A DNA stretch of 64,000 nt from Winogradskyella sp. (GCA_965659975.1 CBFHYD010000001.1:1241-65240); one strand, 5' to 3'. Shown: positions 18,532 to 56,140, numbered from the stretch's first letter. Made by a program: numbers and translations. The notes: generated from the letters alone by a model not told the origin.

Positions 18532-18550
18532 AATTAGATTTAATCTAAAT
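18532..18550. promoter_or_regulatory. Putative Fur box between the suf promoter and sufA start
   Basis: AATTAGATTTAATCTAAAT (minus strand ATTTAGA-TTAAA-TCTAATT), 7-5-7 palindrome. Confidence 0.72.
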
Positions 18551-18555
18551 GTGTG

Positions 18556-18563
18556 CAAAGATA
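18556..18563 (-). promoter_or_regulatory. -7 promoter element of the sufA-sufB-sufC-sufD unit
   Basis: TATCTTTG on the minus strand. Confidence 0.65.
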
Positions 18564-18667
18564 CATTATAGGTGGTGTTTAACAATATTTGCTAACATTA
18601 TATTAGCAAATTGTATGATAGATTATAGCTATTCTAATTCAATGAGTTGGAATTGAAAAATTTGAAA

Positions 18668-18889
18668 CTAATACTTAGAGTTGAGACGTCTATTTAAAAG
18701 GAATAGTTGACGAAACGCACTTTCAACGGTTATACTATATGATAATTCTGATACGATGTCTCCGTTCGTATCAATTTTTGCCTCGAAACCACAATGTCTA
18801 CATGAAATTTTATCAGATGTATTAGAAACGGATTTATAGAAATTATGGCCAAGAGTAAGGCGCCTCATATTCAGTGTAGTAGGTTTCAT
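18668..18889 (-). CDS. Small GH...CxxC putative zinc-binding protein (DUF1660-like, divergent)
   Basis: LGHNFYK...CRHC...IDTNGD resembles the ORFs at 26255 and 26695. Confidence 0.55.
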   Translation of the reverse strand: MKPTTLNMRRLTLGHNFYKSVSNTSDKISCRHCGFEAKIDTNGDIVSELSYSITVESAFRQLFLLNRRLNSKY

Positions 18890-18997
18890 AGGTTGGATTA
18901 CTGGGGGGCACCTAATATAGAAATACTAATAAAAAATCAAGTTGAACTAAGAATATTTTCGATGAAATGCATATATTTTTATATAATATTAGAACTT

Positions 18998-20056
18998 TTA
19001 GTTCTGAAAGTCTGGATTTGTCAGAAAAGAAGGATCAGAAAGTGTCAATAGAAAGGCAATAAGATCTGCCTTATCTGAAGCCGAAAGTTGAGCTCCACCA
19101 TCATCAACATTTTTCATTAAAGGATCAATGGTTGGTGAATCTTGAAGGCCTTCACTGTAAAAATCAATTACCTCTTCTAAGGTTTCAAAACGCCCGTCAT
19201 GCATATAAGGTGCGGTATAGGCTAAGTTACGTAAAGAAGGTGATTTAAAACGTCCATTGTCGTTCGGGTCACCTGTTACAGCACCCAATCCTAAATCTGT
19301 AAAGGTGGCATCCAAACCATTATTATGAAAATCATTATCTGTCCATAACGGATTATTTGGATTTCCGTGACAATGGAAACAATCACCTTTGTCTTCTCTT
19401 AAAAATACATCGAGACCATTTAATTCTTGAGGTGTAAGTGTTGCTTGGCCAAGTGTATATCTGTCAAATTTAGAGTTTGCTGAAATTAGAGTACGTTCAA
19501 ATTGTGCCAAAGCGCGTGCTACTAATTCTTTTGTCATAGTTTCTGTGCCAAAGGCTGCTAAAAATAACTCTGGGTAATCAGGATGGCTACTTAATCTATT
19601 AACAATATTGTCCCAATTACTATGCATCTCCACTGGATTTTCAACTGGTTCCAACGCTTGGCGTTCCAAACTCAATTCTTTGCCATCCCATGCAAAGCGT
19701 TCATTATAGTTCCAAGCCAAATTGAATAATGGCATTGAATTGCGTGTGCCTAAAGCGCCATTAACGCCTGCACTCAATGCGTTGTTATCTGTAAATGCAC
19801 TTTGTGGTGCATGACAACTTGCACATGCTATTGAGTTATCACTTGACAGAATCCTATCGAAAAATAAACGCTTCCCTAAAGCAATGCCTTCCTCAGTTTG
19901 TGGATTGTCGTTAGGAATAACTGGTGGTATAATGTTATCCGAAAATATCTGAGGAATGTCTATGTCTATTGCCACAGGTGTATATCCGTTATCTTCTTCG
20001 TTGGAACAAGAAAGTATTAGAAGTGGTATTACTATTAGACTAAGATATTTTCTCAT
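18998..20056 (-). CDS. Di-heme cytochrome c peroxidase superfamily lipoprotein, MbnH/MauG-like
   Basis: Two CxxCH motifs (CASCH, CFHCH), FAWDG, FKSPSLRN..TAPYMHDG, EVIDFY; lipobox ILSC; directly downstream of an MbnP gene. Confidence 0.88.
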   Translation of the reverse strand: MRKYLSLIVIPLLILSCSNEEDNGYTPVAIDIDIPQIFSDNIIPPVIPNDNPQTEEGIALGKRLFFDRILSSDNSIACASCHAPQSAFTDNNALSAGVNGALGTRNSMPLFNLAWNYNERFAWDGKELSLERQALEPVENPVEMHSNWDNIVNRLSSHPDYPELFLAAFGTETMTKELVARALAQFERTLISANSKFDRYTLGQATLTPQELNGLDVFLREDKGDCFHCHGNPNNPLWTDNDFHNNGLDATFTDLGLGAVTGDPNDNGRFKSPSLRNLAYTAPYMHDGRFETLEEVIDFYSEGLQDSPTIDPLMKNVDDGGAQLSASDKADLIAFLLTLSDPSFLTNPDFQN

Positions 20057-20059
20057 GCT

Positions 20060-20830
20060 TTATTGTGTTATTGTACCCAAACTAAACACCGTTTCTACAT
20101 TGTCCTGCATCATTTTTTGAGCCATATAATTTGGCATTAAAGGTGTATCCAAAACATTCAAATCCCATTGGTGCGGATTTTTGAAAAATTCAGCGATGTT
20201 CATTTCAACCTCAATGACAGCATTATTTGTTATAGTTATGTTATTAGGCAATTCAATGACTGCGAAATTTTGTTCAAAAACATCTGGATTGGTACTGGCT
20301 CTGGCAGTACCATTATGGAAATTAAATGGAGCAGATGAGGTGTTTACATTGTAAAACCCATCAAACTGTAAGAAATGGTATCCACCACCAAGCATTGGAG
20401 GCCAATTCCAAGATGCACTATTTAAATCTACGTAACCACCATCGATATTATCAGCTTCGTTAAATCCCCAAACAAACCTTAAGGTATAATTTCCTGAAGG
20501 AATTGTATTGTTCATTGGTGTGAAATTATAAGTCTGTGGATCTGATAAGTCCGTAAACTTATAACCATCGAAACTGTAGGTAACTCCGTTTTGAGACACA
20601 AGTTCAAATCTGGAAACAAGATAACGTAACCTCGAGAATTCCATGGTTTCACCATTTTGATTTGTTACTGTGGTACTCATTAAATTTTGATCATTAATCA
20701 CAGTTCCATCCCAATTATGAGTAAAGGCAAATGACACCTCTAACTGTGCTTGATTGTCATCATTATCTTCGCAAGCCAAAGCCAATAGACTTAAAGTTAA
20801 AACAGCAATTAATTGTAATGTCTTTTTCAT
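20060..20830 (-). CDS. MbnP family copper-binding lipoprotein
   Basis: Lipobox ALAC; LRYLVSRFEL, SWNW (WxW), GYHFLQFDG, FHNG. Confidence 0.82.
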   Translation of the reverse strand: MKKTLQLIAVLTLSLLALACEDNDDNQAQLEVSFAFTHNWDGTVINDQNLMSTTVTNQNGETMEFSRLRYLVSRFELVSQNGVTYSFDGYKFTDLSDPQTYNFTPMNNTIPSGNYTLRFVWGFNEADNIDGGYVDLNSASWNWPPMLGGGYHFLQFDGFYNVNTSSAPFNFHNGTARASTNPDVFEQNFAVIELPNNITITNNAVIEVEMNIAEFFKNPHQWDLNVLDTPLMPNYMAQKMMQDNVETVFSLGTITQ

Positions 20831-20834
20831 TTTT

Positions 20835-22178
20835 TTAATTGATCTTAATTACTAATAGGTCCGAAAACCCTTTATTTTCAATAATATCTCCATCATCACT
20901 TGTGGTATCTCCAACAGCAACAATAGAACGGTCGTTTAGTTGAGCAACGCCATAGGCAAAGTCGATATTGCTTCCACCAGCAGAAATTTCCCATTCCAAA
21001 TCACCATTACTATCTATTTTAACAATCCAGGCATCGTTTTGTCCTTTGTTTTCAGAAACGTCACCATCACTACTTCTTGAACTTCCGGTTAAAATTAATC
21101 CGTTGTCTTGAGTTAATTTTATATCTCTTGAAACATCAAAACTGGTACCTCCTAAAGTTTTTTGCCAAAGTAATTCACCATCGGTATTAATTTTTATAAA
21201 CCACATATCCGCCGCACCATTATTCCCAGAAACATCAGTGTTATCGCTTCTTGTATCACCAGCAATCACAAAATTTCCATCGTTTGATTTTATAATAGCT
21301 CTCGCTTCGTCTATCTGATCGCCACCAAATGACTTTTCCCATATAAAGTCACCATTACTTGCAATTTTTATGACCCAAAAGTCGTAAGTGCCTTTGTTGT
21401 TTGTGATATCAGTATCGGCACTATCACTGCCACCTGCAATGATAAAATCACCTTGCTCACTCTCGACAGCACCCTCAGGCGTATCTGTGAAATTTCCACC
21501 GAAATAACGACTCCATTCCAAACTGCCAGAACTGTCTACTTTAATTGCCCAATAATCACCACCAGCATGACGTTCTAATACTCTACCTGTATTTCCTTGA
21601 CCACCAGAGGCTGTAACGTCTAAAACACCTGTTAGTAGATATCCTAAATCTGAGGTTTGTAATACTGAAATTCCTGTATCATTCCCAGAAAAACCAAACA
21701 CCTCTTGCCATTCTATATTTCCTTGTGCATCCAGTTTGGCCAACCAAAAATCTTGACCGCCATTATTGTCTGTTAAATCACCATCGGTGCTTTGACTAGA
21801 GCCAATAATGGCAAAGCCACCATCTTGAGTTTGGATAATATTGCGTCCGCGTTCATCTAATGAGCCTCCGTAGGTTTTTTGCCATTGGATATTATTTTGA
21901 GCATCATATTTAAGCAGCCAGAAATCAAAACTGGTATCTAATTTGTCCGTAATATCAAGATCGTTACTTTGTGTATAACCGAGAACTGCATAGCCACCAT
22001 CATTAGTCGCCACAACAGATTGGGCACTCTCGTTATTGCTGCCTCCAAAGGTGTTAATGTTAATCGTTTCAGGAATTAATGGTGATTGTATCGGTGTTTC
22101 CGATAGGTCTTCTAAGCCACTACAGCCAAAAAAGCTAATCGCCAAAAGCAATAAAAATATGTATGATAGGCTTTTCAT
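20835..22178 (-). CDS. Beta-propeller repeat lipoprotein
   Basis: Lipobox FFGC; about 7 repeats of GG..D......T.DGG....G...S....D.W..K.D..G...W. Confidence 0.8.
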   Translation of the reverse strand: MKSLSYIFLLLLAISFFGCSGLEDLSETPIQSPLIPETININTFGGSNNESAQSVVATNDGGYAVLGYTQSNDLDITDKLDTSFDFWLLKYDAQNNIQWQKTYGGSLDERGRNIIQTQDGGFAIIGSSQSTDGDLTDNNGGQDFWLAKLDAQGNIEWQEVFGFSGNDTGISVLQTSDLGYLLTGVLDVTASGGQGNTGRVLERHAGGDYWAIKVDSSGSLEWSRYFGGNFTDTPEGAVESEQGDFIIAGGSDSADTDITNNKGTYDFWVIKIASNGDFIWEKSFGGDQIDEARAIIKSNDGNFVIAGDTRSDNTDVSGNNGAADMWFIKINTDGELLWQKTLGGTSFDVSRDIKLTQDNGLILTGSSRSSDGDVSENKGQNDAWIVKIDSNGDLEWEISAGGSNIDFAYGVAQLNDRSIVAVGDTTSDDGDIIENKGFSDLLVIKIN

Positions 22179-22188
22179 ACACTATGGA

Positions 22189-23658
22189 TTAATTACTCTT
22201 TCTGACAACGAAAAGACCACTTTCGATATCATTAATGATAACATTACCGCTTGCAAAGTATGGATAGATACTCCAAACACCATTAAATGCTGCACCATCA
22301 CTTGCAGGGAAAGTATCAATGAAATGTGTTTCTGTCATTGGATCAGTTGCCGAACTAATGTTTGAAATGTCTAAAATTCGCACCCCAGCTCTATAATTGG
22401 CTAAGAAGTATTCATTTCCTTTTACGTAGCCATTGTGATCAATCGCAGGAGTCGGTCCAAAATAGGTCGACGAAAGTGTTGGATTATCTAAGTCGGTAAA
22501 ATCAAAAACTAAAGTTTTTGTATTAAACCCAAATCCTATTTCATCCGTTTCGTCACCTAAGATAAAGTACCTTTGGTCTTCAGTAAACCAGCCTTGGTGC
22601 GCATAAGATGCATCAGGATATGTAAAATCACTAATCGGGATTACATTTGTTTTGTCTGTAACATCCAATATTACAATACGATCTGTATTCCCGTTACTAC
22701 CGATATATATTTCCTTTCCTGTATAATCACCATCAGGACCATTATAGGTTACAACCTGAGCATCATGGGAATATCCACCAGCAGTATAGTCACCTAAAAA
22801 TGTTGGATTTAATGGGTTAGAAATGTCTACAAAAATTGGACCTCCACCATTTGTAGAGCTACATCCTACCAAATAAGCAACACCTTCACTTTCATTGATA
22901 ACAATATTATGACAACTTCCAACGCCTGTATAAATAGCATCTGCCGTAAAGGTTTCTGGAGCGTTAGTAACATTTCTTAATCGCGCAAGATCGAATACCT
23001 GCATACCGTGGTTTCCAACACCATCAGCAACGATAAAGGCATAATCATTATAAACTTTAACATCTCTCCAAAAGTTAGTACCTGCATTTGAATTTAAACG
23101 CCCTAAGAATATAGGGTCTAATGGATTTGATACATCAACAAAAGCGGTACTATTGGTTAAGCAAACCAACGCATATTCCCTGTTGGTTGTTGGGTCTGTC
23201 CATCCCCAAATATCACTACCTTCTATATTTGAGGCAGTACTACCACCAAGGGTTGCATTATCAATTGCAGACATAACATCGATACCATCACAAGGATATG
23301 GTCCAGCCATACCGTTATTACATTCAAAAAGAGGAACTATTGGATCATCACAAACATCTCCAATACCATCGTTGTCTATATCCTCTTGATTTGGGTTTGG
23401 TGTTAATGGACAATTATCGTCAACATCTAAAACGCCATCATCGTCATCGTCCGTATCACATACATCACCTTCGCCATCATTATCGGTGTCTAATTGGTCT
23501 GTGTTGGCTGTAGTAGGACAGTTGTCATTTTCATCGAAAAAGCCATCATTATCGGTGTCCGTAGAATTTATTTGAGGCGCATCTTCTTCTTTACAACTTA
23601 GGGTTACAGATACTAAGCCGAATAAGGCCATAAAACATAGGAATTTTAATAGTTTCAT
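22189..23658 (-). CDS. Choice-of-anchor B (LVIVD-repeat) lipoprotein with thrombospondin type-3 repeats
   Basis: Lipobox TLSC; DxDxDG..D.CDNCP repeats; [46 protein letters not shown]. Confidence 0.87.
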
Positions 23659-23724
23659 TTGGGAGAATTTTTTTAGTAATTTAACCATTTAATCGCAATT
23701 CATTAAACGGAAAATAAATACTGA

Positions 23725-25161
23725 TTATTTTACTACAATTTTTTTTGTAAGGCTATTATTAATTTTCACGAGGTAAATACCACTTTTATTTTGAGAAAAT
23801 GGAATAGTGAATTGGTCCTCATTTAAATTTTGAAAGTCGTATAATTTCTGCCTTAATAAATTATATACTTCAACAGCATTGATTGGAGTACTTCCACTGG
23901 AAGTTATTGTGGTATCGGCTTGTGTCGGATTTGGAGACACATTGAAAGTTCCAATAGTATTCTGATTTGTCGATAGATTACTAATTTTTCCAACAACAAA
24001 TAAACCGCGTTCTATATCATTAATCACAATATTACCACTTGGGAAATAAGGATAAACACTCCAAGCGCCATTAAATGAAGTTGCATCATTTTCGGGTCTT
24101 GTATCGAAAAAACCAATTTCTTGCATTGGGTTCGATGCATTGGAAATATTGGTAATGTCTAAAACGCGAAGGCCAGCTGAATAATTTGCCAAATAATATT
24201 TGTTACCATTCACATAGCCATTATGATCTATAGCACCAGTTGGGCCAAAATAGGTTGCGTGAAGTGTAGGTGATGTTAAGTCAGATAAATCGAAAATAAG
24301 CGCTCTTGAATTAAATCCAATCCCGATTTCATCGGTTTCATCTCCGAGAATGAAATACCGTTGATCATCTGTAAACCAACCTTGGTGCGTGGAGCCAATT
24401 TGAGGATATATTACTTCGGATATTTTAGTAACATTTGTCTTATCGGTAACGTCTAAAATCACAACTTCATTCTCATTACTACCAATATAAATCTCCTTAC
24501 CAGTGTAATTTGTATCAGGACCAGTATAGGTGATTACTTGCGCATCATGAGAGTAGCCTTCTGCCGAATAACTGCCTAAACTTACAGGGTTTGTAGGCGT
24601 AGAAATATCTACAAACACAGGACCGCCATTAGAAGTATTACAACCAACCAAATAAGCAACTGCTTCACTTTCATTAATGACAATATTATGGCAACTATTA
24701 ACTCCTGTAAAGACAGTATCAGCCGTAAAAGTTGCTGGAGGACTTGTTACACTTCTCAGTTTTTTAAGGTCAAAAACCTGCATGCCGTGCGCACCTACAT
24801 TATCTGCAACAATAAAAGCATAGTCATTATAAACTTTAACGTCACGCCAAAAGTTGTTTCCAGAGTTACTGTCCAAACGTCCAAGGAAAACAGGATTGAC
24901 AGGATTCGAAACGCCAACAAAAGCGGTACTATTGGTCATGGCACAGATTGCATATTCTTTACCAGTCATTGAGTCAGTCCATCCCCAAATGTCGCTGCCT
25001 TCAGGATTACCATTGGTATTGGCTAAGGTAGCAACAGGGATATTTGATAAAAGATCGAAATCGTCACAAGGATAAGCACCGGCAAAACCGCCTGTGCAAG
25101 ATGTTTGGGACAGCACATTTAGGGTTCCGATGAAAAAGAAAAGTAGGTTAATTTTTTTCAT
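23725..25161 (-). CDS. Choice-of-anchor B protein with T9SS type A C-terminal sorting domain
   Basis: Same choice-of-anchor B motifs; C-terminal VSPNPT...VEVYNLL.QK...SGIYLVKI...KKIVVK; start moved to MKKINLL. Confidence 0.9.
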   Translation of the reverse strand: MKKINLLFFFIGTLNVLSQTSCTGGFAGAYPCDDFDLLSNIPVATLANTNGNPEGSDIWGWTDSMTGKEYAICAMTNSTAFVGVSNPVNPVFLGRLDSNSGNNFWRDVKVYNDYAFIVADNVGAHGMQVFDLKKLRSVTSPPATFTADTVFTGVNSCHNIVINESEAVAYLVGCNTSNGGPVFVDISTPTNPVSLGSYSAEGYSHDAQVITYTGPDTNYTGKEIYIGSNENEVVILDVTDKTNVTKISEVIYPQIGSTHQGWFTDDQRYFILGDETDEIGIGFNSRALIFDLSDLTSPTLHATYFGPTGAIDHNGYVNGNKYYLANYSAGLRVLDITNISNASNPMQEIGFFDTRPENDATSFNGAWSVYPYFPSGNIVINDIERGLFVVGKISNLSTNQNTIGTFNVSPNPTQADTTITSSGSTPINAVEVYNLLRQKLYDFQNLNEDQFTIPFSQNKSGIYLVKINNSLTKKIVVK

Positions 25162-25242
25162 AAAAGATGTAAAGATAATATATATAAAATGCAATCGCAC
25201 TTTGTATTGTTAAATACTAATCTTTAGATGTACCTTTGCAGC

Positions 25243-26289
25243 ATGTTAGAAGATAAAAACCCACAACGTACGCCATTGGATAAGTTGGGCGAGTTTAAAC
25301 TCATTGAACACTTAACCAATAATTTCAAGCTAAGTCATAAGTCTTCAATCAAAGGTATTGGAGACGATGCGGCAATTTTGGATCACGGTAAGAAACAAAT
25401 TGTAGTTACAACAGATTTGTTGGTCGAAGGTGTGCATTTTGATTTAAGTTATGTGCCGCTTAAGCACCTTGGATATAAATCGGTGATGGTCAATTTATCT
25501 GATGTCTACGCGATGAATGCCAAGGCTACTCAAATTACAATATCAATCGCGGTTTCTAACCGATTTCCTTTAGAAGCTTTGGAAGAATTATATGCTGGTA
25601 TTGAAACCGCAGCAAAACTATATAATATTGATGTTGTAGGTGGCGATACCACATCGTCAACCTCTGGACTGATAATATCCATTACTGCCATTGGCGAAGT
25701 TGATAAAGACAAAGTCGTAGAACGATCTGGTGCTAAGCCAAACGATTTATTAGTTGTTACTGGTGATTTAGGCGGTGCCTATATGGGCTTACAAGTTTTG
25801 GAACGTGAGAAGGAAGTTTTTAAAGTCAATCCTCAAAACCAGCCAGATTTATCTATGTACACCTATATTGTAGAACGTCAACTAAAGCCTGAAGCCCGAA
25901 AAGATATCATTGAATTGTTGGAAAAATTGGAAGTTAAACCAACAAGTATGATTGACATTAGTGATGGGTTATCTTCTGAAGTGATACATCTCTGTAAAAA
26001 CAGTAATGTTGGTGTGGATCTTTATGAAAATAAAATCCCATTAGATCCTCAAGTGATTAGCACTTGCGAAGAATTTGATATCGATAGCACAACAATTGCG
26101 CTTAATGGTGGCGAAGATTATGAATTGCTTCTGACGGTTTCCCAAGACGACTATCCAAAAATAAAAGGCAATCCTAATTTAACGGTTATCGGTTATATTA
26201 CAGAAGCCGAACGTGGTATGCATTTAGTAACGCGAGCAGAAACCAAAGTGCCTATTATTGCGAAAGGATGGAAGAATTTTGAAGGCTAA
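25243..26289 (+). CDS. thiL: Thiamine-monophosphate kinase
   Basis: GEFKLI, GIGDDAA, NLSDVYAM, GGDTT, DISDGL, GGEDYELL; start MLEDK placed just after TACCTTTG (25231-25238). Confidence 0.95.
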   Translation: MLEDKNPQRTPLDKLGEFKLIEHLTNNFKLSHKSSIKGIGDDAAILDHGKKQIVVTTDLLVEGVHFDLSYVPLKHLGYKSVMVNLSDVYAMNAKATQITISIAVSNRFPLEALEELYAGIETAAKLYNIDVVGGDTTSSTSGLIISITAIGEVDKDKVVERSGAKPNDLLVVTGDLGGAYMGLQVLEREKEVFKVNPQNQPDLSMYTYIVERQLKPEARKDIIELLEKLEVKPTSMIDISDGLSSEVIHLCKNSNVGVDLYENKIPLDPQVISTCEEFDIDSTTIALNGGEDYELLLTVSQDDYPKIKGNPNLTVIGYITEAERGMHLVTRAETKVPIIAKGWKNFEG

Positions 26290-36171: not shown

Positions 36172-37422
36172 ATGCTTTATCGTTATTTTTTAGCACTATT
36201 TCTTTTTGCGACTCTATTCTCTTACTCTCAAGAAACATCTAATGAAGAAGTCAAGATTTTTTTAGACTGTGGTCGATGTGATCAAGAATTCTTAAGACAG
36301 AACTTGGGTAATGTTCAGTTTGTGCGTGACCAAGACTTAGGCGATGTGCATATTTTTGTGGTGACACAACGCAATGGTGCTGGCGGCCGAAGTTTTGAGA
36401 TGGATTTTATAGGAAAGAAAGATCTTGAGGCTATCAATTACAAGCTCACCTTTTCTACCGATGCGAATATGACACGCGACGAAGAACGTCGCCGTGTTAT
36501 GGAATATCTCAAATTGGGCTTGGTGCGTTTTTGGATTGCACGTGGGACTTTGGATGAGGTCGTTGTTAGCGTACCGTCACCAGAAAATGAAGAAGTAAAA
36601 GAAGAGGAAAAAGATCCTTGGGATTATTGGCTGTTTAGTGTTGGTGCCAATGGCTTTTTTAATGGGCAAGAATTAAGCAGCAGAAGTAACATTAATTTTA
36701 ATGCATCTGCACGACGCGTTACTGAGAAGAATAAATTTAGATTCTTTGCACGTTATGGTGAAAACAGATCTACATTCACCTTTATCAATGAAAATGACGA
36801 GGAAGAAGATTTCAAAGTTTTTAATAATAACAAGCGAATTAACGTAAGTGATATTCTCAGTATAAACGATCATTGGTCTTATGGATTCTTTGGTAGTGTA
36901 GGAACATCAACCTTTAGTAATTTTGATTTGTTCTGGACGTTTAGACCAGCGATTGAATACAGTTTCTTTGATTACGTAGATTCAGCAAAAAAGCAATTGA
37001 CTATTTCCTACAGAAACGGTATCAGGTATAATGACTACATCGAGAGTACTGTTTTTGGAGAAGATGCTGAGTGTTTTTGGGAACATGGAGTGCAACTAGG
37101 TGGACGTATCAATCAAGAATGGGGAAATCTAAATGCTGAGGTATCCTTTAATCAGTTTTTGGATGACACATCATTGTATGCTGTAAACTTCTTTTTAGGA
37201 ACGAATGTCCGCTTGTTCAAAGGATTTAATTTTAATGTAAGCGGTAGTTATTCAATTACACGAAACCAGGTGAATATACCTGGTGGCGACTTATCTGTAG
37301 AAGAATTACTATTGCAGCAACAGCAGCTACAATCGGGCTTTGATTACTTTGTAAGTGTAGGATTTAATTATGCCTTTGGATCCATCTACAACACGATTGT
37401 AAATCCACGTTTTGATTTTTAA
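36172..37422 (+). CDS. Hypothetical outer-membrane beta-barrel protein
   Basis: Signal peptide, FLDCGRCD N-domain, amphipathic strands, C-terminal FGSIYNTIVNPRFDF. Confidence 0.72.
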   Translation: MLYRYFLALFLFATLFSYSQETSNEEVKIFLDCGRCDQEFLRQNLGNVQFVRDQDLGDVHIFVVTQRNGAGGRSFEMDFIGKKDLEAINYKLTFSTDANMTRDEERRRVMEYLKLGLVRFWIARGTLDEVVVSVPSPENEEVKEEEKDPWDYWLFSVGANGFFNGQELSSRSNINFNASARRVTEKNKFRFFARYGENRSTFTFINENDEEEDFKVFNNNKRINVSDILSINDHWSYGFFGSVGTSTFSNFDLFWTFRPAIEYSFFDYVDSAKKQLTISYRNGIRYNDYIESTVFGEDAECFWEHGVQLGGRINQEWGNLNAEVSFNQFLDDTSLYAVNFFLGTNVRLFKGFNFNVSGSYSITRNQVNIPGGDLSVEELLLQQQQLQSGFDYFVSVGFNYAFGSIYNTIVNPRFDF

Positions 37423-37439
37423 TTAAAACCATTCTAAAT
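37421..37439. promoter_or_regulatory. Putative Fur box upstream of the sdhC promoter
   Basis: Minus strand ATTTAGA-ATGGT-TTTAATT (12/14 arm positions). Confidence 0.5.
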
Positions 37440-37450: not shown

Positions 37451-37470
37451 TATTGCCATAGTTGGCAATA
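37451..37470. promoter_or_regulatory. Perfect palindrome overlapping the -33 region of sdhC (candidate operator)
   Basis: TATTGCCA-TAGT-TGGCAATA; no U-tract on either strand. Confidence 0.5.
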
Positions 37471-37484
37471 AAACGTTTGCGCAG

Positions 37485-37492
37485 TATCTTTG
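37485..37492 (+). promoter_or_regulatory. -7 promoter element of the sdh operon
   Basis: TATCTTTG, 28 nt before the ATG. Confidence 0.65.
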
Positions 37493-37520: not shown

Positions 37521-38210
37521 ATGAGCGGAATTTTAAGTTCGTCGATAGGAAGAAAGTTCGCCATGGCACTTTCGGCACTCTTCCTTATGGTATTTTTACT
37601 TCAGCATTTTGCGATAAATATACTTTCAGTATTTAGTCCAGACACCTTTAACGAAGCTTCCCATTTTATGGGGACATTTTGGGCTGTACAATACATTTTA
37701 CAACCTGTTTTAATTTTTGGGGTCATCTTTCATTTTGTTATGGGATTTGTTTTGGAGATTAAAAACAATAGTGCAAGAAAAGTAAGCTATGCTAAAAATA
37801 ATGGTGGTGCAAATTCAACTTGGATGAGTAGAAACATGATCTGGAGTGGCTTAGTCATTTTAGTGTTTTTAGTGATTCATATGATAGATTTCTGGGTAAA
37901 CGAAATGAATGTAAAATATGTAGCTGGTGATATGACTGGTTTGGTAAATCCAGAAGATCCAGCAAGTGGTTTTAGATACTACGAAGAACTTGTAGTGAAG
38001 TTTAGACCAATGTGGCGCGTAGCGCTTTATAGTTTAGGATTCGTGTTCTTAGCATTACACTTATTACATGGCTTTAACTCGGCATTCCAATCTGTTGGTG
38101 CAAATAACAAGTACACGAAAGCGTTACAAGGATTTTCAAAAGTGTATGCTATTGGACTTCCGTTAGGCTTCATATTTATAGCATTATTTCATCATTTTAG
38201 TGGACATTAA
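37521..38210 (+). CDS. sdhC: Succinate dehydrogenase cytochrome b subunit
   Basis: [12 protein letters not shown], conserved His residues, SAFQSVG; leads the sdh operon. Confidence 0.92.
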
Positions 38211-45864: not shown

Positions 45865-45865
45865 G

Positions 45866-48974: not shown

Positions 48975-49367
48975 ATGAAAAATTTATATAGAAGTTTAAG
49001 TGTAATAGTCCTGGTATTTTGTTTAGTATCCTGTAAGAATACTGCTGAGCCAGAAGTTAAAACTGTTGATATAGCTGTTTCAGAAAATCCAACGGAGTCA
49101 AATAATAATGCATCCTACGCAAAGGTTGAATTCAATATTAAAGGTATGACCTGTGCAATGGGTTGTGCAAAAACTATTGAAAAGAAAATGGCACAAATGG
49201 ATGGTGTAAAAATGGCTAAAGTAGATTTTGAGAAAGAGTTGGCTATGGTAGAATATGATGAAGCAAAGGTAACTCCAAAAACTTTAGAAGAAACAGTAAC
49301 CAAGGTAAGCGAAGCTTATAAAGTAGAAGACATTAAAACTGTTGAGCAATTCTCAACAGATAAGTAA
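48975..49367 (+). CDS. Heavy-metal-associated (HMA) domain lipoprotein
   Basis: Lipobox LVSC; GMTCAMGCAKTIE; start moved to MKNLYRS. Confidence 0.85.
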   Translation: MKNLYRSLSVIVLVFCLVSCKNTAEPEVKTVDIAVSENPTESNNNASYAKVEFNIKGMTCAMGCAKTIEKKMAQMDGVKMAKVDFEKELAMVEYDEAKVTPKTLEETVTKVSEAYKVEDIKTVEQFSTDK

Positions 49368-49387
49368 TACACCCAAAAAATAAAACT

Positions 49388-50368
49388 TTAAGACGTTATC
49401 CAATCGGGTAACGTTTTTTTATTGAAGTCTTTATCCAAATTGGAGAGCATCTCGAAAGTAATGTCTTCTAAGTTAAATTCAGGGTTCCAATTCCAATGTT
49501 CTCGCGCGGCACTATCATCAATCGATGAAGGCCAAGAATCGGCAATACTTTGCCTAAAATCTGGCTCGTAATTAATCTTAAAATCTGGCTTATATTTTTT
49601 AATGCTATGGTATATATCTTTTGGGGTAAATGAAATAGATGCCAAGTTATAAGATGAACGTATTTTAATTGATTCTGCTGGTGCTTCCATTAGGTTTATA
49701 GTAGCATTAATAGCATCCTCCATATACATCATTGGAAGTTCTGTATTTTCGGATAAGAAACAATCATATGCGCCTTTTTGAATAGCTTCATGATATATTT
49801 CTACGGCATAATCTGTGGTGCCGCCACCTGGTAATGCCTTGTAACTAATAATTCCTGGATAACGAATACTCCTAACATCCACACCATACTTTGCATGATA
49901 ATATTCGCACCAGCGCTCACCAACCTGTTTGGTTATACCATATACAGTTGTCGGTTCACAAATCGTATGCTGAGGTGTATTATGTTTTGGGGTTGTTGGT
50001 CCAAAAACAGCAATACTACTTGGCCAATATACTTTTTTAATAGTGCCGCCTTTAGCAAGATTTAAGACGTGGAACAAAGAATTCATATTTAATTCCCATG
50101 CTTCCATTGGATATTTCTCACCAGTAGCACTCAGCAATGCAGCCATTAAGTAAATGGTATCGATATTGTAATTTTTACAGCAATCTTTTATAGCATTGAA
50201 GTTTTTTGCATCTAAAATTTCGAAAGGTCCTGATTTTACAAGTGCTAGGTTACGTGTGTTTATATCACTTGTAATGACGTTATCAGTTCCATATTTTTTA
50301 CGTAATTTGGTGGTGAGTTCTGTACCAATTTGGCCACAAGCACCAATTATTAAAATCTTAGAGGACAT
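49388..50368 (-). CDS. tdh: L-threonine 3-dehydrogenase (extended SDR type)
   Basis: IIGACGQIG, WPSSIAVFG, YGITK, PGGGTTDYA, SWPSSIDD. Confidence 0.88.
   Translation of the reverse strand: MSSKILIIGACGQIGTELTTKLRKKYGTDNVITSDINTRNLALVKSGPFEILDAKNFNAIKDCCKNYNIDTIYLMAALLSATGEKYPMEAWELNMNSLFHVLNLAKGGTIKKVYWPSSIAVFGPTTPKHNTPQHTICEPTTVYGITKQVGERWCEYYHAKYGVDVRSIRYPGIISYKALPGGGTTDYAVEIYHEAIQKGAYDCFLSENTELPMMYMEDAINATINLMEAPAESIKIRSSYNLASISFTPKDIYHSIKKYKPDFKINYEPDFRQSIADSWPSSIDDSAAREHWNWNPEFNLEDITFEMLSNLDKDFNKKTLPDWITS
49391..49421. terminator. Intrinsic terminator
   Basis: ACGTTATC-CAATC-GGGTAACGTTTTTTT. Confidence 0.7.
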
Positions 50369-50496
50369 AGCTATATTTGAGTTTTATCAAAAATACTAAG
50401 AAATAGCAGTGTCTTTTTAATAATTTATTAAAATATTAACCGTTTTGTAAGAATATCTTACAATTGAGAAATGCACAGTTTAGTTAACTTTATCGC

Positions 50497-51081
50497 ATGA
50501 AATTTGAAAATAAAATAAGACCACTTTTTATAATTACCGCAATTGTTTTTTTTGTTAGTATAGCATGCAACGATAAAAATCAAGATGATAAAGTCAAAGA
50601 TTATCAAACCGAGATTTCTGCTAAAAAGGAAATATCAGCCAAGGCTATAGAACGATTTAATTACAATGATTATACCCTAAGTCCTGATGCTGAAAAGGAA
50701 GTGCAATCTTGGACAAAGTTTTTGGAATTGGAGACTCAGATTACTTATCTAAAAACAGCAGATATTGCCTTTTTTACTGAAGAAAAGGATACACTGAAAA
50801 ACTTTATTGATAGCTTACGTGTTAGTGTGCCGGAGAATATTAAAACAAATCCGGTAAATGCACGAATTACCGCTTTAGAAACAACTCTACTTAAATTAAA
50901 TAACGACTTAAATTTGGATAATTATCCTGCAGAGAAAAAGTTGAAAAGTATCAAAGAGTTTCTTATTGCTAACTCCAACCTCATTTTTGTGATAAATAAG
51001 AAATTAGAATTTGATAAAAATGATATTGGAAGACCCGAAGGCGAAGGGCAAAAAGAAACATTTATTGAAGAAGACAAATAG
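50497..51081 (+). CDS. Hypothetical lipoprotein
   Basis: Lipobox SIAC; helical ORF of 194 aa. Confidence 0.72.
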   Translation: MKFENKIRPLFIITAIVFFVSIACNDKNQDDKVKDYQTEISAKKEISAKAIERFNYNDYTLSPDAEKEVQSWTKFLELETQITYLKTADIAFFTEEKDTLKNFIDSLRVSVPENIKTNPVNARITALETTLLKLNNDLNLDNYPAEKKLKSIKEFLIANSNLIFVINKKLEFDKNDIGRPEGEGQKETFIEEDK

Positions 51082-51085
51082 AAAC

Positions 51086-51115
51086 AAAAAAGCAACTCAA
51101 TTGAGTTGCTTTTTT
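51086..51115. terminator. Bidirectional terminator (30-bp perfect palindrome)
   Basis: AAAAAAGCAACTCAATTGAGTTGCTTTTTT. Confidence 0.85.
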
Positions 51116-51133
51116 AATTCGATTTTAATTCTT

Positions 51134-51823
51134 TTAGTTTTTTGGCTCTGCCTTTTTCTTTTCTAGAGCTTCTCTAGCATTTTTGGCCAAATTGAAGTTT
51201 GGATCTATTACTAAGGCATCGTTAACCAACTTTAATGCACCATCGAGATTAGATTGATTCTGCTGGAAGGTTGCTAAGGCTTTCATATAAAGTAATGCTG
51301 CCTTTAAAGAGGTTTCGTATGGACGTTGTGTCTCATAAAAGGCACGTTTCATGTCATCTGTTACATTTTTTAGACCATATTCGATTTTTGCCATAGCATT
51401 CGGGATATCCTTGTTTTGCAAAGATAAATCAGCTATTTGGTACGCTAATGATGGGTTGGGTTTACGTGAATAAAGTACTTCGTATTGCTCTAAAGCTTTT
51501 GCAACTTCGTTGATATTTTGTAGTGAAATTGCCTTAACTTCAACATTTAAATCTGAGTCCGTTGCATTTTTATCAATACCAATCGTATTAAGAGCTTGGA
51601 TATAGTTATTATTACTCATGTATAGATAAGCAATAGTGTCCTTTCGTGCTTGAGAAGGTTCTAAAATATCCAAGTGTGTTAATGCATTAATTACACCTTG
51701 AACATCAGCTTGCGCTTTCATTTTTTTGTAATAAGCTTCGTAGTGAGCCTTTAAATCTGAGTTTGTCTGTGCAAATGCTGCTACAGAAATTAGCATTGCC
51801 AATGCTAAAGTTATCTTCTTCAT
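51134..51823 (-). CDS. Secreted TPR-like protein
   Basis: Signal peptide; TPR-like helices (ALVIDPNFNLA); -7 element TAGTTTTG upstream. Confidence 0.75.
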   Translation of the reverse strand: MKKITLALAMLISVAAFAQTNSDLKAHYEAYYKKMKAQADVQGVINALTHLDILEPSQARKDTIAYLYMSNNNYIQALNTIGIDKNATDSDLNVEVKAISLQNINEVAKALEQYEVLYSRKPNPSLAYQIADLSLQNKDIPNAMAKIEYGLKNVTDDMKRAFYETQRPYETSLKAALLYMKALATFQQNQSNLDGALKLVNDALVIDPNFNLAKNAREALEKKKAEPKN

Positions 51824-51893
51824 TATTAATATAATTTAGTGCGCCAAAACTAAGAAAATTAATAACATTATTACTTAAATAGTTCTTAATTCT

Positions 51894-52736
51894 CTAAAGG
51901 CTAATTCGATACCTATATGACAATAGTTGTGCCACGTTAGTACCATTTATAATTTTTCCTTTTGATGGTGTTTGGGAATCGAACTCTGGAATTTCTATTC
52001 CAACGGATTTACAATAGTCAATATAATAGTCTTCTTTTTTGGGATGATAAGGAAAGGCGGCATTGAATGTTTTTCCCCAAATGGAATTTTTAATAAGCTC
52101 TGAGATAAGAGAAATACAATCTTCTTTGTGAATAAGATTTACGGGTGCGTTTTGATTTTTAATGTTTGTTCTGCCTGATAATATTTTACCTGGATGCCTA
52201 ACATCATCAAAAAGGCCAGCAAAGCGCAAGATTGTTGTGTTGTATTTAGGGTTGCTTTTTATTGCCTCTTCAATGGCCTGTAGCTGTTTTGCAGAATTTG
52301 TAATACCATCTGGTTTTGTCTCATCTAAAATCTCATGAAAATCCAAAGTGTCTTGAAATACTGAAGTAGAGCTAACATATAATATGTTTTTTATGTTACT
52401 CTTGTCGCTTTCCATCATTAGAGCCACAATTTCTTTCACATGGTTTTTCGTTGGATTTTTTCGTAATCCAGGCGGAATATTCAGGATAAGCGTTTCGCTT
52501 TGAGATAAAAACCCTTTTATATCACCTACTACTTTTTGCTTATTCAGCTCAATTAAATATGGTTGAATACCTTCAGATTTTAGTAATTCGAATTTATCAG
52601 AAGTGGTCGTTGATCCCTTAATGGTAAAGCCAAATTTTTGAAGATGTTTGGCAAGAGGTAGGCCTAACCAACCACAACCTAAAACACTTATTTGAGAAGA
52701 TTTCAAAATAATTTTGAGTATAAGTTTGTGTTGCAA
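51894..52736 (-). CDS. NAD(P)-binding SDR (YeeZ-like atypical)
   Basis: ISVLGCGWLG, GSTTT, SSTSV, LRFAGL, VNLIH; true start may be a few codons downstream. Confidence 0.85.
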   Translation of the reverse strand: MQHKLILKIILKSSQISVLGCGWLGLPLAKHLQKFGFTIKGSTTTSDKFELLKSEGIQPYLIELNKQKVVGDIKGFLSQSETLILNIPPGLRKNPTKNHVKEIVALMMESDKSNIKNILYVSSTSVFQDTLDFHEILDETKPDGITNSAKQLQAIEEAIKSNPKYNTTILRFAGLFDDVRHPGKILSGRTNIKNQNAPVNLIHKEDCISLISELIKNSIWGKTFNAAFPYHPKKEDYYIDYCKSVGIEIPEFDSQTPSKGKIINGTNVAQLLSYRYRISL

Positions 52737-52815
52737 AGATAGTGTGTAAGGCCCAACATGTAGGTTAACTCACTAATTTTAAGTAACTTTAGTTTCAACG
52801 TTAAATTCTTCGGTT

Positions 52816-52959
52816 ATGGGTGTCAAAAGTTTTCAAGGTGCTAGAAAGCAACAAAGCACAACATTAGATAAGGCATTAAAAGTCAAGGATTATATGTCAA
52901 CGTATTTCTTGTATAAAAAAAGAGAAGCTATTCGGCTTCCCTTTTTGTTTGCTATTTAA
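52816..52959 (+). pseudogene. 5' remnant of a CBS-domain protein gene, truncated into a terminator
   Basis: MGVKSFQGARKQQSTT...VKDYMST is recalled as the N-terminus of flavobacterial CBS proteins; the frame then reads through a terminator hairpin. Confidence 0.65.
52915..52946. terminator. Intrinsic terminator
   Basis: AAAAAAAGAGAAGC-TATTCG-GCTTCCCTTTTT. Confidence 0.72.
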
Positions 52960-52965
52960 AAACCT

Positions 52966-54348
52966 TTAGTTTTTAATAATCTTTTTAGTTATTCTTAAGT
53001 CAGTTGAAGCACTTTCAATAGTTAAGAAATATAATCCTGAAGTTAAGTTTTTCAGATTTGAAATAGTCACTTTATTTGAGTTTACTGAACTATCACTTAA
53101 AATAACTTTGCCATTGATGTCTACAATAGAAAAATCGAGTGTATCATTGACTAACTGTTGCGGTAAATCTACAGTTATTGTTTCCAAAAATGGATTTGGT
53201 GAAACCTTAAAGTCTTCTGCATTAAAATTATCTGAACTTAATACACGATCACAAATCGTCCATCCCATATCTTGCATAAATGCTAAGGTAACATCACCTG
53301 GGTCATATACTGTTTCTCCTGGACCTAAGAATGGTGTCATAAGTGCAAAGTCGGTTCCATTGATGGTATCTTCATTCCAGTGACTGTAACTCGAGCCATT
53401 TGTGAAACCTCCATTGAGTGCCCCCTCAATTCTTAATTCTTCACCACTGGTGTTCTCGGCGATAGCAGCAGGGGAATTACAAGTCAAAAAACTTGTTTGT
53501 TGTTCCATAGCAGCTAATAAAACTGTAGATGGGTCTGGAAAACTATTTTCATCCGTTAATGGTAGTGGTTGTCCAAAAATATCAGATCCATCTATAAAAG
53601 TATCCCAAGGTGAAAGAAATGTGGCATTTGGATTATCAACCGAGATACCACCATTTGATAAACGCCTTAATATACCAATATCTTGGCCTTCACCATTTTG
53701 CACCTGTCTTCCAAAACCAGCAATTCCTAATCCATGGCCAATTTCATGTAACACTACAGCTGTAAAATTAAATTGACCACCTGGAGTAACATCACTTGTG
53801 CTTGTTGGGAAAAACCAATCCGACCTGTTAGAATTAAATGTGCAAAAAATATCAAAGCCTCCAGGGTTAGCATCGGCGCCGATTAATTTTTCATATAAAG
53901 GAGCAGGATAGATTACGTTATCTGTACTACCAGGTAATCCCTGAAAATATGTTGCCGCAGCACCACCTAAACTTCCACCAGCTGCAGGTGCCCAATTGGC
54001 ATCTATTCTAATGGTTACAGGAGTATCGATTAGATTTTCCCAAATATCCATAGCTAATTGAAATGCTTCTTGCTCTGGTCCAGGACCTCCAAAAATATCT
54101 GTTGGAAATCCGGTGTAAGTAACTTCAATATTAGCACAAGGTGCTATTCTGCTTTCCATTTTTTGCCTTACCGATTCTCTTACCCCGATGAAAAGATCAC
54201 TTGGTTCACCAGTATCTGGCATAATGCAAGTTAATTCAAGTCCGTTAGGTCCATACAAACGATCTTGATTATGAGTTTGAGAATAAATCGATAGGCAAAA
54301 GCTAAAAAGACCTATTGCAAAAATTGGTTTTAGGTAATTTTTCATCAT
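52966..54348 (-). CDS. T9SS type A-sorted zinc metalloprotease-like protein
   Basis: LHEIGHGLG (HExxH), GSSYSHW, LMTP; CTD VSPNPF...SGLYFL...TKKIIKN; start moved to MMKNYLK. Confidence 0.85.
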   Translation of the reverse strand: MMKNYLKPIFAIGLFSFCLSIYSQTHNQDRLYGPNGLELTCIMPDTGEPSDLFIGVRESVRQKMESRIAPCANIEVTYTGFPTDIFGGPGPEQEAFQLAMDIWENLIDTPVTIRIDANWAPAAGGSLGGAAATYFQGLPGSTDNVIYPAPLYEKLIGADANPGGFDIFCTFNSNRSDWFFPTSTSDVTPGGQFNFTAVVLHEIGHGLGIAGFGRQVQNGEGQDIGILRRLSNGGISVDNPNATFLSPWDTFIDGSDIFGQPLPLTDENSFPDPSTVLLAAMEQQTSFLTCNSPAAIAENTSGEELRIEGALNGGFTNGSSYSHWNEDTINGTDFALMTPFLGPGETVYDPGDVTLAFMQDMGWTICDRVLSSDNFNAEDFKVSPNPFLETITVDLPQQLVNDTLDFSIVDINGKVILSDSSVNSNKVTISNLKNLTSGLYFLTIESASTDLRITKKIIKN

Positions 54349-54463
54349 TTCTTCTTTTTTTGGGCAACAAAAATAACTAAACACTCACGTTTTTTTTGTT
54401 TGTTTAACATAAAAAGGACGCTTTTTATAGAAAAAACCTCCTTTTTTTGACACTTTAGCAATC

Positions 54464-54847
54464 TTACTTCACCACCAAACTATACTGAGGTGTCTTATTG
54501 AGAGGACAAAAGTAAACGTACTCACCTTTTGAAAGTTTCGTAGTACGCGTCTTCTGAGTTTCACCATTTTTAACAATTTGAGTTACATAAGCTGTTTGTA
54601 TATGATTCTCTGGATTGCTAGCATCTTTCCCTTTAGAAACTAATACAAAACCTACATCTATACCTGCATGATTTGTAACCTCAAAAATGTAAGTTCCTTG
54701 AGATAAGGTAACGGACTTTTGAGTAAACTCTCCTTTGGTTTGTTCTAAAGCTACTGTCTTTACATTATCTTTCATCATTGTGTCTTGTGCGTTTCCAGTT
54801 AATGTAAATGCCAAAACTACTACTAAAATTGAAATTATTTTTTTCAT
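54464..54847 (-). CDS. Secreted cupredoxin-like domain protein
   Basis: Signal peptide; GEYVYFCPLNKTP C-terminal cupredoxin-type strand. Confidence 0.72.
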   Translation of the reverse strand: MKKIISILVVVLAFTLTGNAQDTMMKDNVKTVALEQTKGEFTQKSVTLSQGTYIFEVTNHAGIDVGFVLVSKGKDASNPENHIQTAYVTQIVKNGETQKTRTTKLSKGEYVYFCPLNKTPQYSLVVK

Positions 54848-54876
54848 CTTTTTTGTTTTTTAATTTATTATTTGAT

Positions 54877-55428
54877 TTATACTGTTTCTAATTCTAAAGG
54901 TTGGGCAACTGGAAAATCTACAGGTACTTTTGTAGTGTTGTGGATATAGTTAGAAATTGTTTTTTCACCCACAAGAACAAGTGTGTCGATAAGATTTGCT
55001 TTAGTGTATCCAGCATTAAAGAAATTTTTTAATACCGATTGTTCAGTGTTTACTCTGTTTTCAGTTGCGTTTTTGGCAAGTTTTGCCAGTGCGTCTAACT
55101 TGTTATTAATCGAAGAATAACCCGCTCTAAGCTCTAATATTTGTTCTCCATCAAAACCATTCATTTGGGCAATAGCAGTATGTGCAGATAAGCAATAGAT
55201 ACAATCATTAACTTGGCTTACGGCTAAGTTTACTACTTCTTTTTCTTTGGCAGTTAATGATGATTTGGCATTTGCAAAGTTTAAGTAGTTCTCTAATGCC
55301 GTATCACTATTTGCATAAGTGGCATATAGGTTCGGTACAAAGCCTAAGGCGTTGTTTAGATTGTCAAAAATAGCCTGATTGTTTGGGCTAACTTCTTCTC
55401 CTTTTTCTTTTTGCCCATCTTTCTTCAT
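54877..55428 (-). CDS. Carboxymuconolactone decarboxylase/AhpD-like peroxidase-related protein; N-terminus atypical
   Basis: GFVPNLY, VSQVNDCIYCLSAH (CxxC..H). Confidence 0.85.
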   Translation of the reverse strand: MKKDGQKEKGEEVSPNNQAIFDNLNNALGFVPNLYATYANSDTALENYLNFANAKSSLTAKEKEVVNLAVSQVNDCIYCLSAHTAIAQMNGFDGEQILELRAGYSSINNKLDALAKLAKNATENRVNTEQSVLKNFFNAGYTKANLIDTLVLVGEKTISNYIHNTTKVPVDFPVAQPLELETV

Positions 55429-55476
55429 CTTTAATAGCAGAAATTAATCCACTATTGTTTGACTCAAAAAACTGAG

Positions 55477-55484
55477 CAAAAATA
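55477..55484 (-). promoter_or_regulatory. -7 promoter element upstream of the CMD-cupredoxin genes
   Basis: TATTTTTG on the minus strand. Confidence 0.55.
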
Positions 55485-55488
55485 GATT

Positions 55489-55507
55489 ATTTAAATTTAA
55501 TCTAAAT
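55489..55507. promoter_or_regulatory. Putative Fur box in the promoter spacer
   Basis: TT-ATTTAAA-TTTAA-TCTAAAT-AA; 13/14 arm positions plus palindromic flanks. Confidence 0.72.
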
Positions 55508-55519
55508 AAACTTTAACAA

Positions 55520-56041
55520 TTAATTTTCAGGTGTAATTGCCGCAGAACTTACCACGGTAAGTTGTTGTATATCGCGATCGAATAAGTACAAACCACCTTT
55601 GTCATCACCAATCATACTTATCTTATCAAGTATTGTTCTTGCCACAGCTTCTTCTTCGATTTGCTCGGCCACATACCATTGTAAGAAATTATGAGTTGCA
55701 TAATCTTTTTCTTGAAGTGAGATATGCACCAACTCATTAATACTTTGTGATACAAAGATTTCATGCTCTAATAATTTCTCAAACATTTCTTGAAAAGAAT
55801 TGAAGGAAAGACTCGGTGCGTTAAGCTCACTAACATGAGCATGGCCACCACGTTCGTTTACAAACTTTACCAATTTAAGCATGTGTTCTCTTTCTTCATC
55901 ACTCTGGTCATACATAAAATTTGAGATACCTTCAAGACCTTTAACTTCTGCCCACACAGCCATTGCCAAATAGACTTGAGATGATTCTGCCTCTATACGT
56001 ATCTGCTTATTTAAAGCATTTTCAATAGTTTTTGATAGCAT
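55520..56041 (-). CDS. ftnA: Non-heme ferritin
   Basis: QIRIEAESSQVYL, EEREH, HEIFV, QWYVAEQIEEE ferroxidase ligands; start MLSK; -7 element TATCTTTG at 56057-56064. Confidence 0.93.
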   Translation of the reverse strand: MLSKTIENALNKQIRIEAESSQVYLAMAVWAEVKGLEGISNFMYDQSDEEREHMLKLVKFVNERGGHAHVSELNAPSLSFNSFQEMFEKLLEHEIFVSQSINELVHISLQEKDYATHNFLQWYVAEQIEEEAVARTILDKISMIGDDKGGLYLFDRDIQQLTVVSSAAITPEN

Positions 56042-56121
56042 AATTTTAATTTTTCTCAAAGATAATGAGATATAATCTCAAATAAAATAATTCCAAGGTG
56101 CAAGTCGTTGATTTTAGTACA

Positions 56122-56140
56122 ATTCAGAAGATTTCTAAAT
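56122..56140. promoter_or_regulatory. Putative Fur box between divergent ftnA and ppc
   Basis: ATTCAGA-AGATT-TCTAAAT; 13/14 arm positions. Confidence 0.62.

Follow-up and report, generated by a model that had tools for sequence, protein, structure and literature searches.

A 64,000-nt stretch of the genome of Winogradskyella sp. (in the following, the window; its source is a 2.17-Mb, 35% GC, 92%-complete metagenome-assembled genome) contains four 19-bp palindromes which, on balance, we take to be operators of the single Fur protein of this genome, falling into a proximal class in repressor position and a distal class from which Fur would activate. They are situated at sufA (position 18532, AATTAGATTTAATCTAAAT), upstream of sdhC (37421, AATTAAAACCATTCTAAAT), in front of the CMD-cupredoxin gene pair (55489, ATTTAAATTTAATCTAAAT), and in the divergent region between ftnA and ppc (56122, ATTCAGAAGATTTCTAAAT). 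Scored against ATTTAGA-N5-TCTAAAT, i.e., at the 14 specified positions of the palindrome, three of them exhibit one mismatch each, and the sdhC site, the left half of which is degenerate, exhibits two. A preliminary description, made from the sequence alone, had reported palindromes at these four places, and the 19-mers are indeed read at exactly those coordinates; the neighbouring genes likewise bear the names given there, with Pfam assigning SufA/SufB, SdhA beside a b558-type SdhC, CMD (AhpD-like), cupredoxin, ferritin, and phosphoenolpyruvate (PEP) carboxylase. The positions relative to the predicted promoters are also as first described: at sufA the box lies between the -7 element and the ATG, at CMD it lies in the promoter spacer, and at sdhC and ftnA it is found 45 and 57 nt upstream of the -7 element, respectively (Table 1).

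The motif is already known. The similar 19-bp palindrome of Riemerella mentioned in the preliminary description is indeed the Fur box of Riemerella anatipestifer, derived as ATTTAGAATTATTCTAAAT by Guo et al. in 2017, with four promoters gel-shifted by Fur (PMC5609570). In a 2024 study, the box of the Riemerella rhuB promoter, ATTTAGAATTATCCTAAAT, was found to bind Fur in a Mn-dependent manner with a Kd of 4.3 nM, and rhuB was derepressed more than 20-fold in a fur mutant, in which the response to a chelator was lost (PMC10986502). Our literature search for the motif returned only this Riemerella work. On the basis of these comparisons, the sequence motif is confirmed as a Riemerella-type Fur box, a 19-bp palindrome of the form ATTTAGAAT-N-ATTCTAAAT. 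The genome of Winogradskyella sp. possesses one Fur-family gene (PF01475, 93 bits), which is 57% identical to the single Fur-family gene of Riemerella. Thus, both the consensus and the orthologous regulator are shared with Riemerella, as is the repressor position on iron-uptake promoters, whereas all published Riemerella sites are situated within 100 nt of the start codons of Fur-repressed genes.

Concerning the frequency of the motif, the window contains six matches with at most two mismatches, compared to 1.31 expected, and none of 100 shuffles reaches six. The preliminary description had noticed no full match at other promoters of the window, which stands except for two further matches with two mismatches, one at 9271 within a coding region and one at 54875 at the CMD/cupredoxin junction, a number that equals the chance expectation. 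Genome-wide, where gene calls outside the window follow a simple open reading frame (ORF) heuristic, 10 of the 11 matches with at most one mismatch are found in intergenic DNA, which accounts for 10% of the genome. A weight matrix built solely from the published Riemerella sites and scored against intergenic composition yielded nine intergenic matches of at least 14 bits, compared to 1.3 expected and to a maximum of four in 60 simulations, such that the motif stands above background in intergenic DNA; in the genome-wide tallies the nqrA Fur box is counted twice, the ends of contigs C2 (68305) and C96 (5485) overlapping at an assembly break. With this matrix, the sufA site scores 14.8 bits, the 55489 site 14.6 bits, and the 56122 site 12.8 bits, while the sdhC site of the window remains below 12.5 bits. 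From motif identity, enrichment, conservation, and spacing, we infer that Fur would bind these sites in Winogradskyella sp.

Conservation was read in one genome per genus from 80 genera of the same family, with the 30 best orthologous loci per gene; the sampled genera are kin, such that counts of genera do not represent independent trials. An sdhC orthologue is present in 81 of 81 family genomes, and nTTTAAAAYCATTCTAAAT is found upstream of it in 29 of the 30 genera, with a nearly invariant right half; this family consensus shares 17 of 19 positions with the gel-shifted Riemerella box of hmuR. In 29/30 genera, 44-47 nt separate the end of the box from the -7 element, which is itself conserved there in 29/30. 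In the window, the distances are 45 nt to the -7 element TATCTTTG and 22 nt to the -33 TTG, with no overlap with the core promoter. The same spacing recurs at two other respiratory promoters: within this genome, the box ends 45 nt (sdhC), 46 nt (nqrA), and 46 nt (the first gene of alternative complex III, ACIII) before the -7 element, and among the genera it ends at 45-46 nt for ACIII (29/29) and at 43-46 nt for nqrA (18/30). The pattern extends beyond the family. In Riemerella, which belongs to another family and the genome of which was reached via an exact-match scan for a published box, ATTTAGAAAGATTATAAAC is situated 45 nt before the -7 element of sdhC, and a strong box precedes ACIII; these distal sites of fixed spacing are absent from the descriptions of the Riemerella boxes (PMC5609570; PMC10986502). 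Box-like sites upstream of sdhC were also read in 20 genomes of other families within the class, where they end at 32-35, 44-46, or 55-59 nt; distant homologues of the fumarate reductase type exhibit none.

That the distal boxes might instead control a promoter lying upstream or running divergently was considered and rejected for sdhC: neither strand exhibits a conserved -7 element next to the box, and the genes upstream vary from genus to genus. At ACIII, a divergent SPOR-like gene constitutes a possible second target of the box. A further palindrome, ATTGCCATAGTTGGCAAT, lies over the sdhC -33 element within window positions 37452-37469; it is specific to this genome and not conserved in relatives.

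Table 1. Location of Fur boxes, promoter elements, and genes in the window
Feature	Position	Strand	Remark
Fur box, sufA promoter	18532..18550	.	Repressor position over transcription start region
sufA -7 element TATCTTTG (TAnnTTTG type)	18556..18563	-	Read from sequence; TTG 19 nt upstream
Second conserved element CTAATATAATGTTAG, upstream of sufA -33	18592..18606	-	27/30 genera
sufA, first gene of suf operon, sufB next	18195..18524	-	Pfam Fe-S_biosyn 1.4e-20
Distal Fur box upstream of sdhCAB promoter, centre about -68	37421..37439	.	Activator-type position
sdhC core promoter: -33 TTG 37462-64, -7 TATCTTTG 37485-92	37462..37492	+	Read from sequence
sdhC (cytochrome b subunit), then sdhA	37521..38210	+	SdhA Pfam 3.7e-55
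Fur box in spacer of promoter following ftnA; predicted to drive CMD-cupredoxin here	55489..55507	.	Repressor position
-7 element TATTTTTG, CMD-cupredoxin promoter (putatively ancestral small-ORF promoter)	55477..55484	-	Read from sequence; (T)TATTTTTG in relatives
20-codon remnant MGKKKKEKKLAQTIRLFLTI of small Lys/Cys-rich ORF, out of frame inside CMD start	55356..55418	-	
CMD (AhpD-like) 54877-55428 and cupredoxin 54464-54847	54464..55428	-	Pfam CMD 2.8e-15, Cupredoxin_1 7.6e-07
Fur box, ftnA/ppc divergent region	56122..56140	.	57 nt upstream of ftnA -7, 9 nt upstream of putative ppc -7
ftnA (ferritin), ATG at 56041	55520..56041	-	Pfam Ferritin 4.4e-40
Putative ftnA -7 element TATCTTTG	56057..56064	-	Read from sequence
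Putative ppc -7 element TAACTTTA	56150..56157	+	Read from sequence

At sufA, the box begins 5 nt after the -7 element and ends 7 nt before the ATG. In relatives, TATATTTG occupies the place of the -7 element, and the box starts 5-7 nt past it in 26 of the 30 genera (6 nt in 24). While the distance between the -7 element and the ATG varies from 29 to 98 nt among genera, that between box and -7 element is constant, which ties the box to the promoter, as would be expected of a DNA operator. A translational role as an RNA hairpin was ruled out: the spacing is kept to the -7 element and not to the ATG, with a 5' untranslated region that ranges from 29 to 98 nt. A second element, CTAATATAATGTTAG, precedes the -7 element of sufA by exactly 28 nt in 27/30 genera and is a candidate site of a second regulator at the suf promoter; IscR was rejected as this regulator, no gene of the Rrf2/IscR family having been found in the 92%-complete genome.

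The 55489 box ends 4 nt before its -7 element and fills the -33/-7 spacer. Together with (T)TATTTTTG, it recurs about 20 nt past the stop codon of ftnA (28 of 30 genera), and downstream of it 27 of the 29 other genera possess a small Lys/Cys-rich ORF of 52-64 amino acids with the C-terminal end CCxKFKKGExKRCKKCPCFDLIKKVA, for which no Pfam or NCBIfam family was matched. A full copy of this ORF was found nowhere else in the genome of Winogradskyella sp., in which the CMD gene (with an NCBIfam match to the AhpD core domain) and the cupredoxin gene follow the promoter instead. Independent metagenome assemblies exhibit the same arrangement downstream of ftnA. In six other genera, the CMD-cupredoxin pair is located upstream of ftnA and lacks a Fur box. 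As the pair has no box in those six genera and the small ORF has been lost here, CMD-cupredoxin appears to have taken over an existing Fur-controlled promoter; the pair as a conserved or ancestral Fur target was dismissed on the same grounds, the box belonging to the promoter of the lost ORF. The ORF product may aid the release of iron from ferritin, as its position and its predicted induction in low iron would suggest; the position can be likened to that of bfd, which adjoins bfr. In the six genera mentioned, the CMD-cupredoxin pair is situated behind another conserved element, GGAAAAATTGACAAG ... CACCTTTGTA. Furthermore, the match at the junction of the two genes, ATTTATACTGTTTCTAATT at 54875-54893, overlaps the stop codon of CMD, lies 27 nt ahead of the cupredoxin ATG, and is identical at 17 of 19 positions to the gel-shifted RAYM_09824 box of Riemerella; it may be fortuitous or may represent a weak fifth site for Fur.

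The 56122 site is less conserved than the other three. A box precedes ftnA in about 10 of 30 genera and ends 21 nt (four genera), 35 nt (one), 45 nt (three), or 57 nt (here and in the closest relative) before the -7 element, which in relatives reads TAACTTTA/G and lies about 20 nt before the ATG. On the opposite side, ppc orthologues exhibit TAnnTTTA at the same distance from the ATG as the putative ppc -7 element. The closest relative, which shares the ppc/ftnA order, possesses a box-like palindrome at the same 57- and 9-nt distances, and no box was found at that place in the ppc promoters of the other 28 genera, such that ppc was rejected as a conserved Fur target outside the two genomes with this arrangement. 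As the box lies inside the ppc promoter, repression of ppc explains the site equally well. The sequence comparison points to a lineage-specific site and makes a weak case for direct Fur activation of ferritin: the box probably represses ppc and may also activate ftnA. In several genera, a weak box-like sequence, TTTTTTAATTATTCNCAAT, precedes the -7 element of ppc by about 68 nt. Abutting the ftnA -7 element, within window positions 56066-56080, lies the palindrome TGAGATATAATCTCA, which is specific to this genome and not conserved in relatives.

According to the mechanism that we propose, Fur loaded with Fe2+ would bind the palindrome at all four sites. For the proximal ones, over the transcription start at sufA and in the -33/-7 spacer at 55489, ordinary Fe-Fur repression is the straightforward reading: RNA polymerase would be blocked in iron-replete cells and released in starvation, whereupon Fe-S assembly and, in this lineage, the AhpD-like/cupredoxin pair would be switched on. 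At the distal sites of sdhCAB, nqrA, and ACIII, which end 45-46 bp upstream of the -7 element and are centred near -68, holo-Fur would most likely help RNA polymerase from one face of the helix, such that the iron-rich respiratory complexes would be made only when iron is available, i.e., by a direct iron-sparing switch. The 56122 box would be placed one helical turn further out with respect to ftnA (57 bp) and inside the ppc promoter. We infer the sign of regulation at the distal sites and favour direct activation because the boxes do not overlap the promoters, because the spacing is rigid at three unrelated promoters, and because the iron-rich targets rise with iron: transcripts of sdh and ACIII are higher in iron-rich Elizabethkingia and lower in iron-restricted Riemerella. 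In low iron, the fur mutant of Riemerella RA-YM exhibited ACIII transcripts changed by -2.23 log2 and fumarase transcripts 1.5 log2 lower than the wild type. For sdh, direct activation by Fur is plausible by analogy with the Caulobacter system discussed below. Extended to aerobic Bacteroidia in general, the proposal is that Fur acts as a stereospecific activator of the Bacteroidota-type RNA polymerase and switches on succinate dehydrogenase, Na+-NQR, and ACIII from 45-46 bp (or one turn nearer or further) in place of an RyhB-like small RNA (sRNA); this we put forward tentatively, regarding it as slightly short of an even call.

Several points weigh against activation from the distal sites. Among Bacteroidota, gene activation by Fur has no experimental precedent. 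In the RNA-seq data of Riemerella RA-YM, loss of fur does not prevent sdhCAB from declining under iron limitation, nor does it alter these transcripts when iron is high, and the mutant showed no significant change of sdh. The left half of the sdhC site in the window is degenerate, and both the promoters and the transcription starts are predicted from the consensus TTG-N19-TAnnTTTG, cited for flavobacteria in PMC5609570. Although spacings about 11 bp apart are as predicted for a regulator working from one helix face, what looks like an 11-bp period in the distal spacings was noticed post hoc. Concerning ferritin, no box was found at the Riemerella gene, and ferritin is reported to be higher in low iron in that species. 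The RA-YM dataset itself, however, is internally odd and therefore ambiguous, since hmuR, which is repressed by Fur, keeps an iron response of 8 log2 in this mutant, in conflict with the later CH-1 fur mutant, which is fully derepressed (PMC10986502). As its own Fur-repressed genes remain iron-responsive, we did not accept it as a decisive refutation of Fur activation; it leaves room for a second iron sensor.

Such a sensor, be it a transcription factor or an sRNA, is central to the alternative that the distal boxes bind Fur without activating, Fur merely dampening or fine-tuning expression (by competition with an activator or an UP-like element, or by oligomerising towards the promoter) while the other sensor accounts for iron sparing. 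The persisting low-iron drop of sdh, aconitase, fumarase, and cytochromes in the Riemerella fur mutant is consistent with this, as are the sequence TTTCTAAAAT in the -33 region of ACIII, which resembles a Fur half-site, and the Fur box on an AraC-family regulator beside hemA, which could serve as intermediary. We nevertheless consider it unlikely, though worth keeping in mind: repression of iron-using complexes in high iron would be physiologically senseless, with transcripts rising with iron, the RA-YM data cannot separate Fur-dependent from Fur-independent control when canonical targets stay iron-responsive in the mutant, and a stereospecific contact with RNA polymerase would be expected to give just such a rigid distance of 45-46 bp at promoters that are otherwise unrelated, three in number here. 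A stronger competitor, although we stop somewhat short of calling it probable, concerns the 56122 box, which might serve ppc only, PEP carboxylase being repressed in iron-replete cells and ferritin being no direct Fur target here. The box ends 9 nt before the -7-like TAACTTTA of ppc and overlaps its -33 region, with the same geometry in the one relative sharing the ppc/ftnA arrangement, and about 20 of 30 genera, like Riemerella, possess no box before the ferritin gene. On the other hand, the ppc promoters of the 28 other genera are devoid of it, whereas about 10 genera with other neighbours have a pre-ftnA box, three of them at 45 nt, which is the spacing of the sdh class; 57 nt equals this spacing plus about one helical turn.

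The regulator might also sense peroxide instead of, or besides, iron, the single Fur-family protein then being PerR-like. Its scores for the Fur and the PerR models of NCBIfam are similar and below both cut-offs, and the predicted regulon comprises ferritin, an AhpD-like gene, and the hemA region, which are typical PerR targets; furthermore, the Bacillus PerR box TTATAAT-N-ATTATAA differs from the core of the present motif, TTAGAAT-N-ATTCTAA, at one position per half-site. Yet the Riemerella protein, with 57% identity, represses haem receptors in a metal-dependent and iron-responsive manner, and the regulon predicted here includes a TonB-dependent receptor and suf, which renders a PerR-like regulator improbable compared to Fur. 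By far the least credible explanation is that AT-rich intergenic DNA matches the motif by chance. In a genome of 35% GC, the right half TCTAAAT is indeed frequent, and the two additional two-mismatch matches of the window do look like chance, but the enrichment exceeds shuffles and simulations, and sequence and spacing are conserved across 30 genera and beyond the family; for sufA, sdhC, and 55489, this conservation refutes chance.

The organization proposed here resembles that described by da Silva Neto et al. in 2009 (PMC2724300) for Caulobacter crescentus, where Fur boxes upstream of the -35 element directly activate sdhCDAB and nuo about 2-fold, an effect that is lost when the box is mutated. 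Both systems share the architecture of a 19-bp palindrome (ATTGAGAAC-N-GTTCTCAAT in Caulobacter), which in Caulobacter is situated upstream of the -35 element of sdhCDAB and of an NADH dehydrogenase operon; boxes of uptake genes overlap the promoter, and iron sparing would need no sRNA. The two systems also differ: Caulobacter belongs to another phylum and uses -35/-10 promoters versus the -33/-7 promoters of Bacteroidota, the NADH dehydrogenase is nuo there versus Na+-NQR together with ACIII here, and activation is proven there and predicted here. In Escherichia coli, iron sparing is achieved by Fur and RyhB, and Fur antagonises H-NS at ftnA; no H-NS-type silencer is known from Bacteroidota. 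As would be the case here, sdh and ferritin of E. coli are raised when iron suffices and suf is raised upon starvation, with the Fur sites of ftnA far upstream of the promoter (in part after PMC2724300), whereas E. coli sdh is controlled post-transcriptionally via the Fur-repressed RyhB and the boxes here are found at the target promoters themselves. For Neisseria meningitidis, as far as it is cited in PMC2724300, direct activation by Fur is described for norB, pan1, and nuoA, equally with Fur boxes upstream of the promoters of the activated genes, whereas sdh is regulated via the sRNA NrrF and not directly.

The motif is published, and an alphaproteobacterium provides an established case of dual-mode Fur that directly activates sdh and NADH dehydrogenase. 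With regard to the searchable literature, three findings are new: the distal class of sites, conserved at a fixed distance from sdh, nqr, and ACIII throughout Flavobacteriaceae and also outside this family, the identification of the "CMD" site as the probable promoter of a conserved small ORF after ftnA, and the apparent rewiring of CMD-cupredoxin in this lineage, which suggests that a copper protein and an AhpD-like enzyme have been brought under iron control via a promoter takeover. Bacteroidota lower their iron demand in starvation, a response seen in the transcriptomes of Riemerella and Elizabethkingia, for which a conserved Fur box at a fixed distance from sdh, nqr, and ACIII offers a simple, directly testable hypothesis. 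The distal class is also one of few candidate geometries of activator sites for the -33/-7 promoters of the phylum, and in marine flavobacteria living in iron-poor water the sites point to respiratory and storage genes that would respond to iron.

Outside the window, further matches are found at a TonB-dependent receptor, nqrA, the first ACIII gene, the AraC-family regulator beside hemA, a flavin oxidoreductase, and several genes without assigned function. An Rfam scan of the window revealed no match, and no searchable family of iron sRNAs is known from Bacteroidota. The TonB-dependent receptor (contig C36:14245-14335) carries two Fur boxes, one 3 nt before the ATG and one 27 nt upstream of the -7 element, and is, judged by its sequence, the classical iron-uptake member of the predicted regulon. 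Boxes overlapping the core promoter are found at sufA, 55489, the TonB-dependent receptor, and the AraC-family gene. The sole perfect palindrome of the genome, ATTTAGAAAAATTCTAAAT (contig C69:4706-4724), is situated 26 nt upstream of a -7 element, before the gene of a 122-amino-acid membrane protein with no family match. On contig C40 (17596-17614), the Fur box is located 15 nt before the ATG of the AraC-family regulator, which is divergent from hemA (glutamyl-tRNA reductase); if repressed by Fur, a regulator adjacent to a gene of haem synthesis could add a second layer of iron control.

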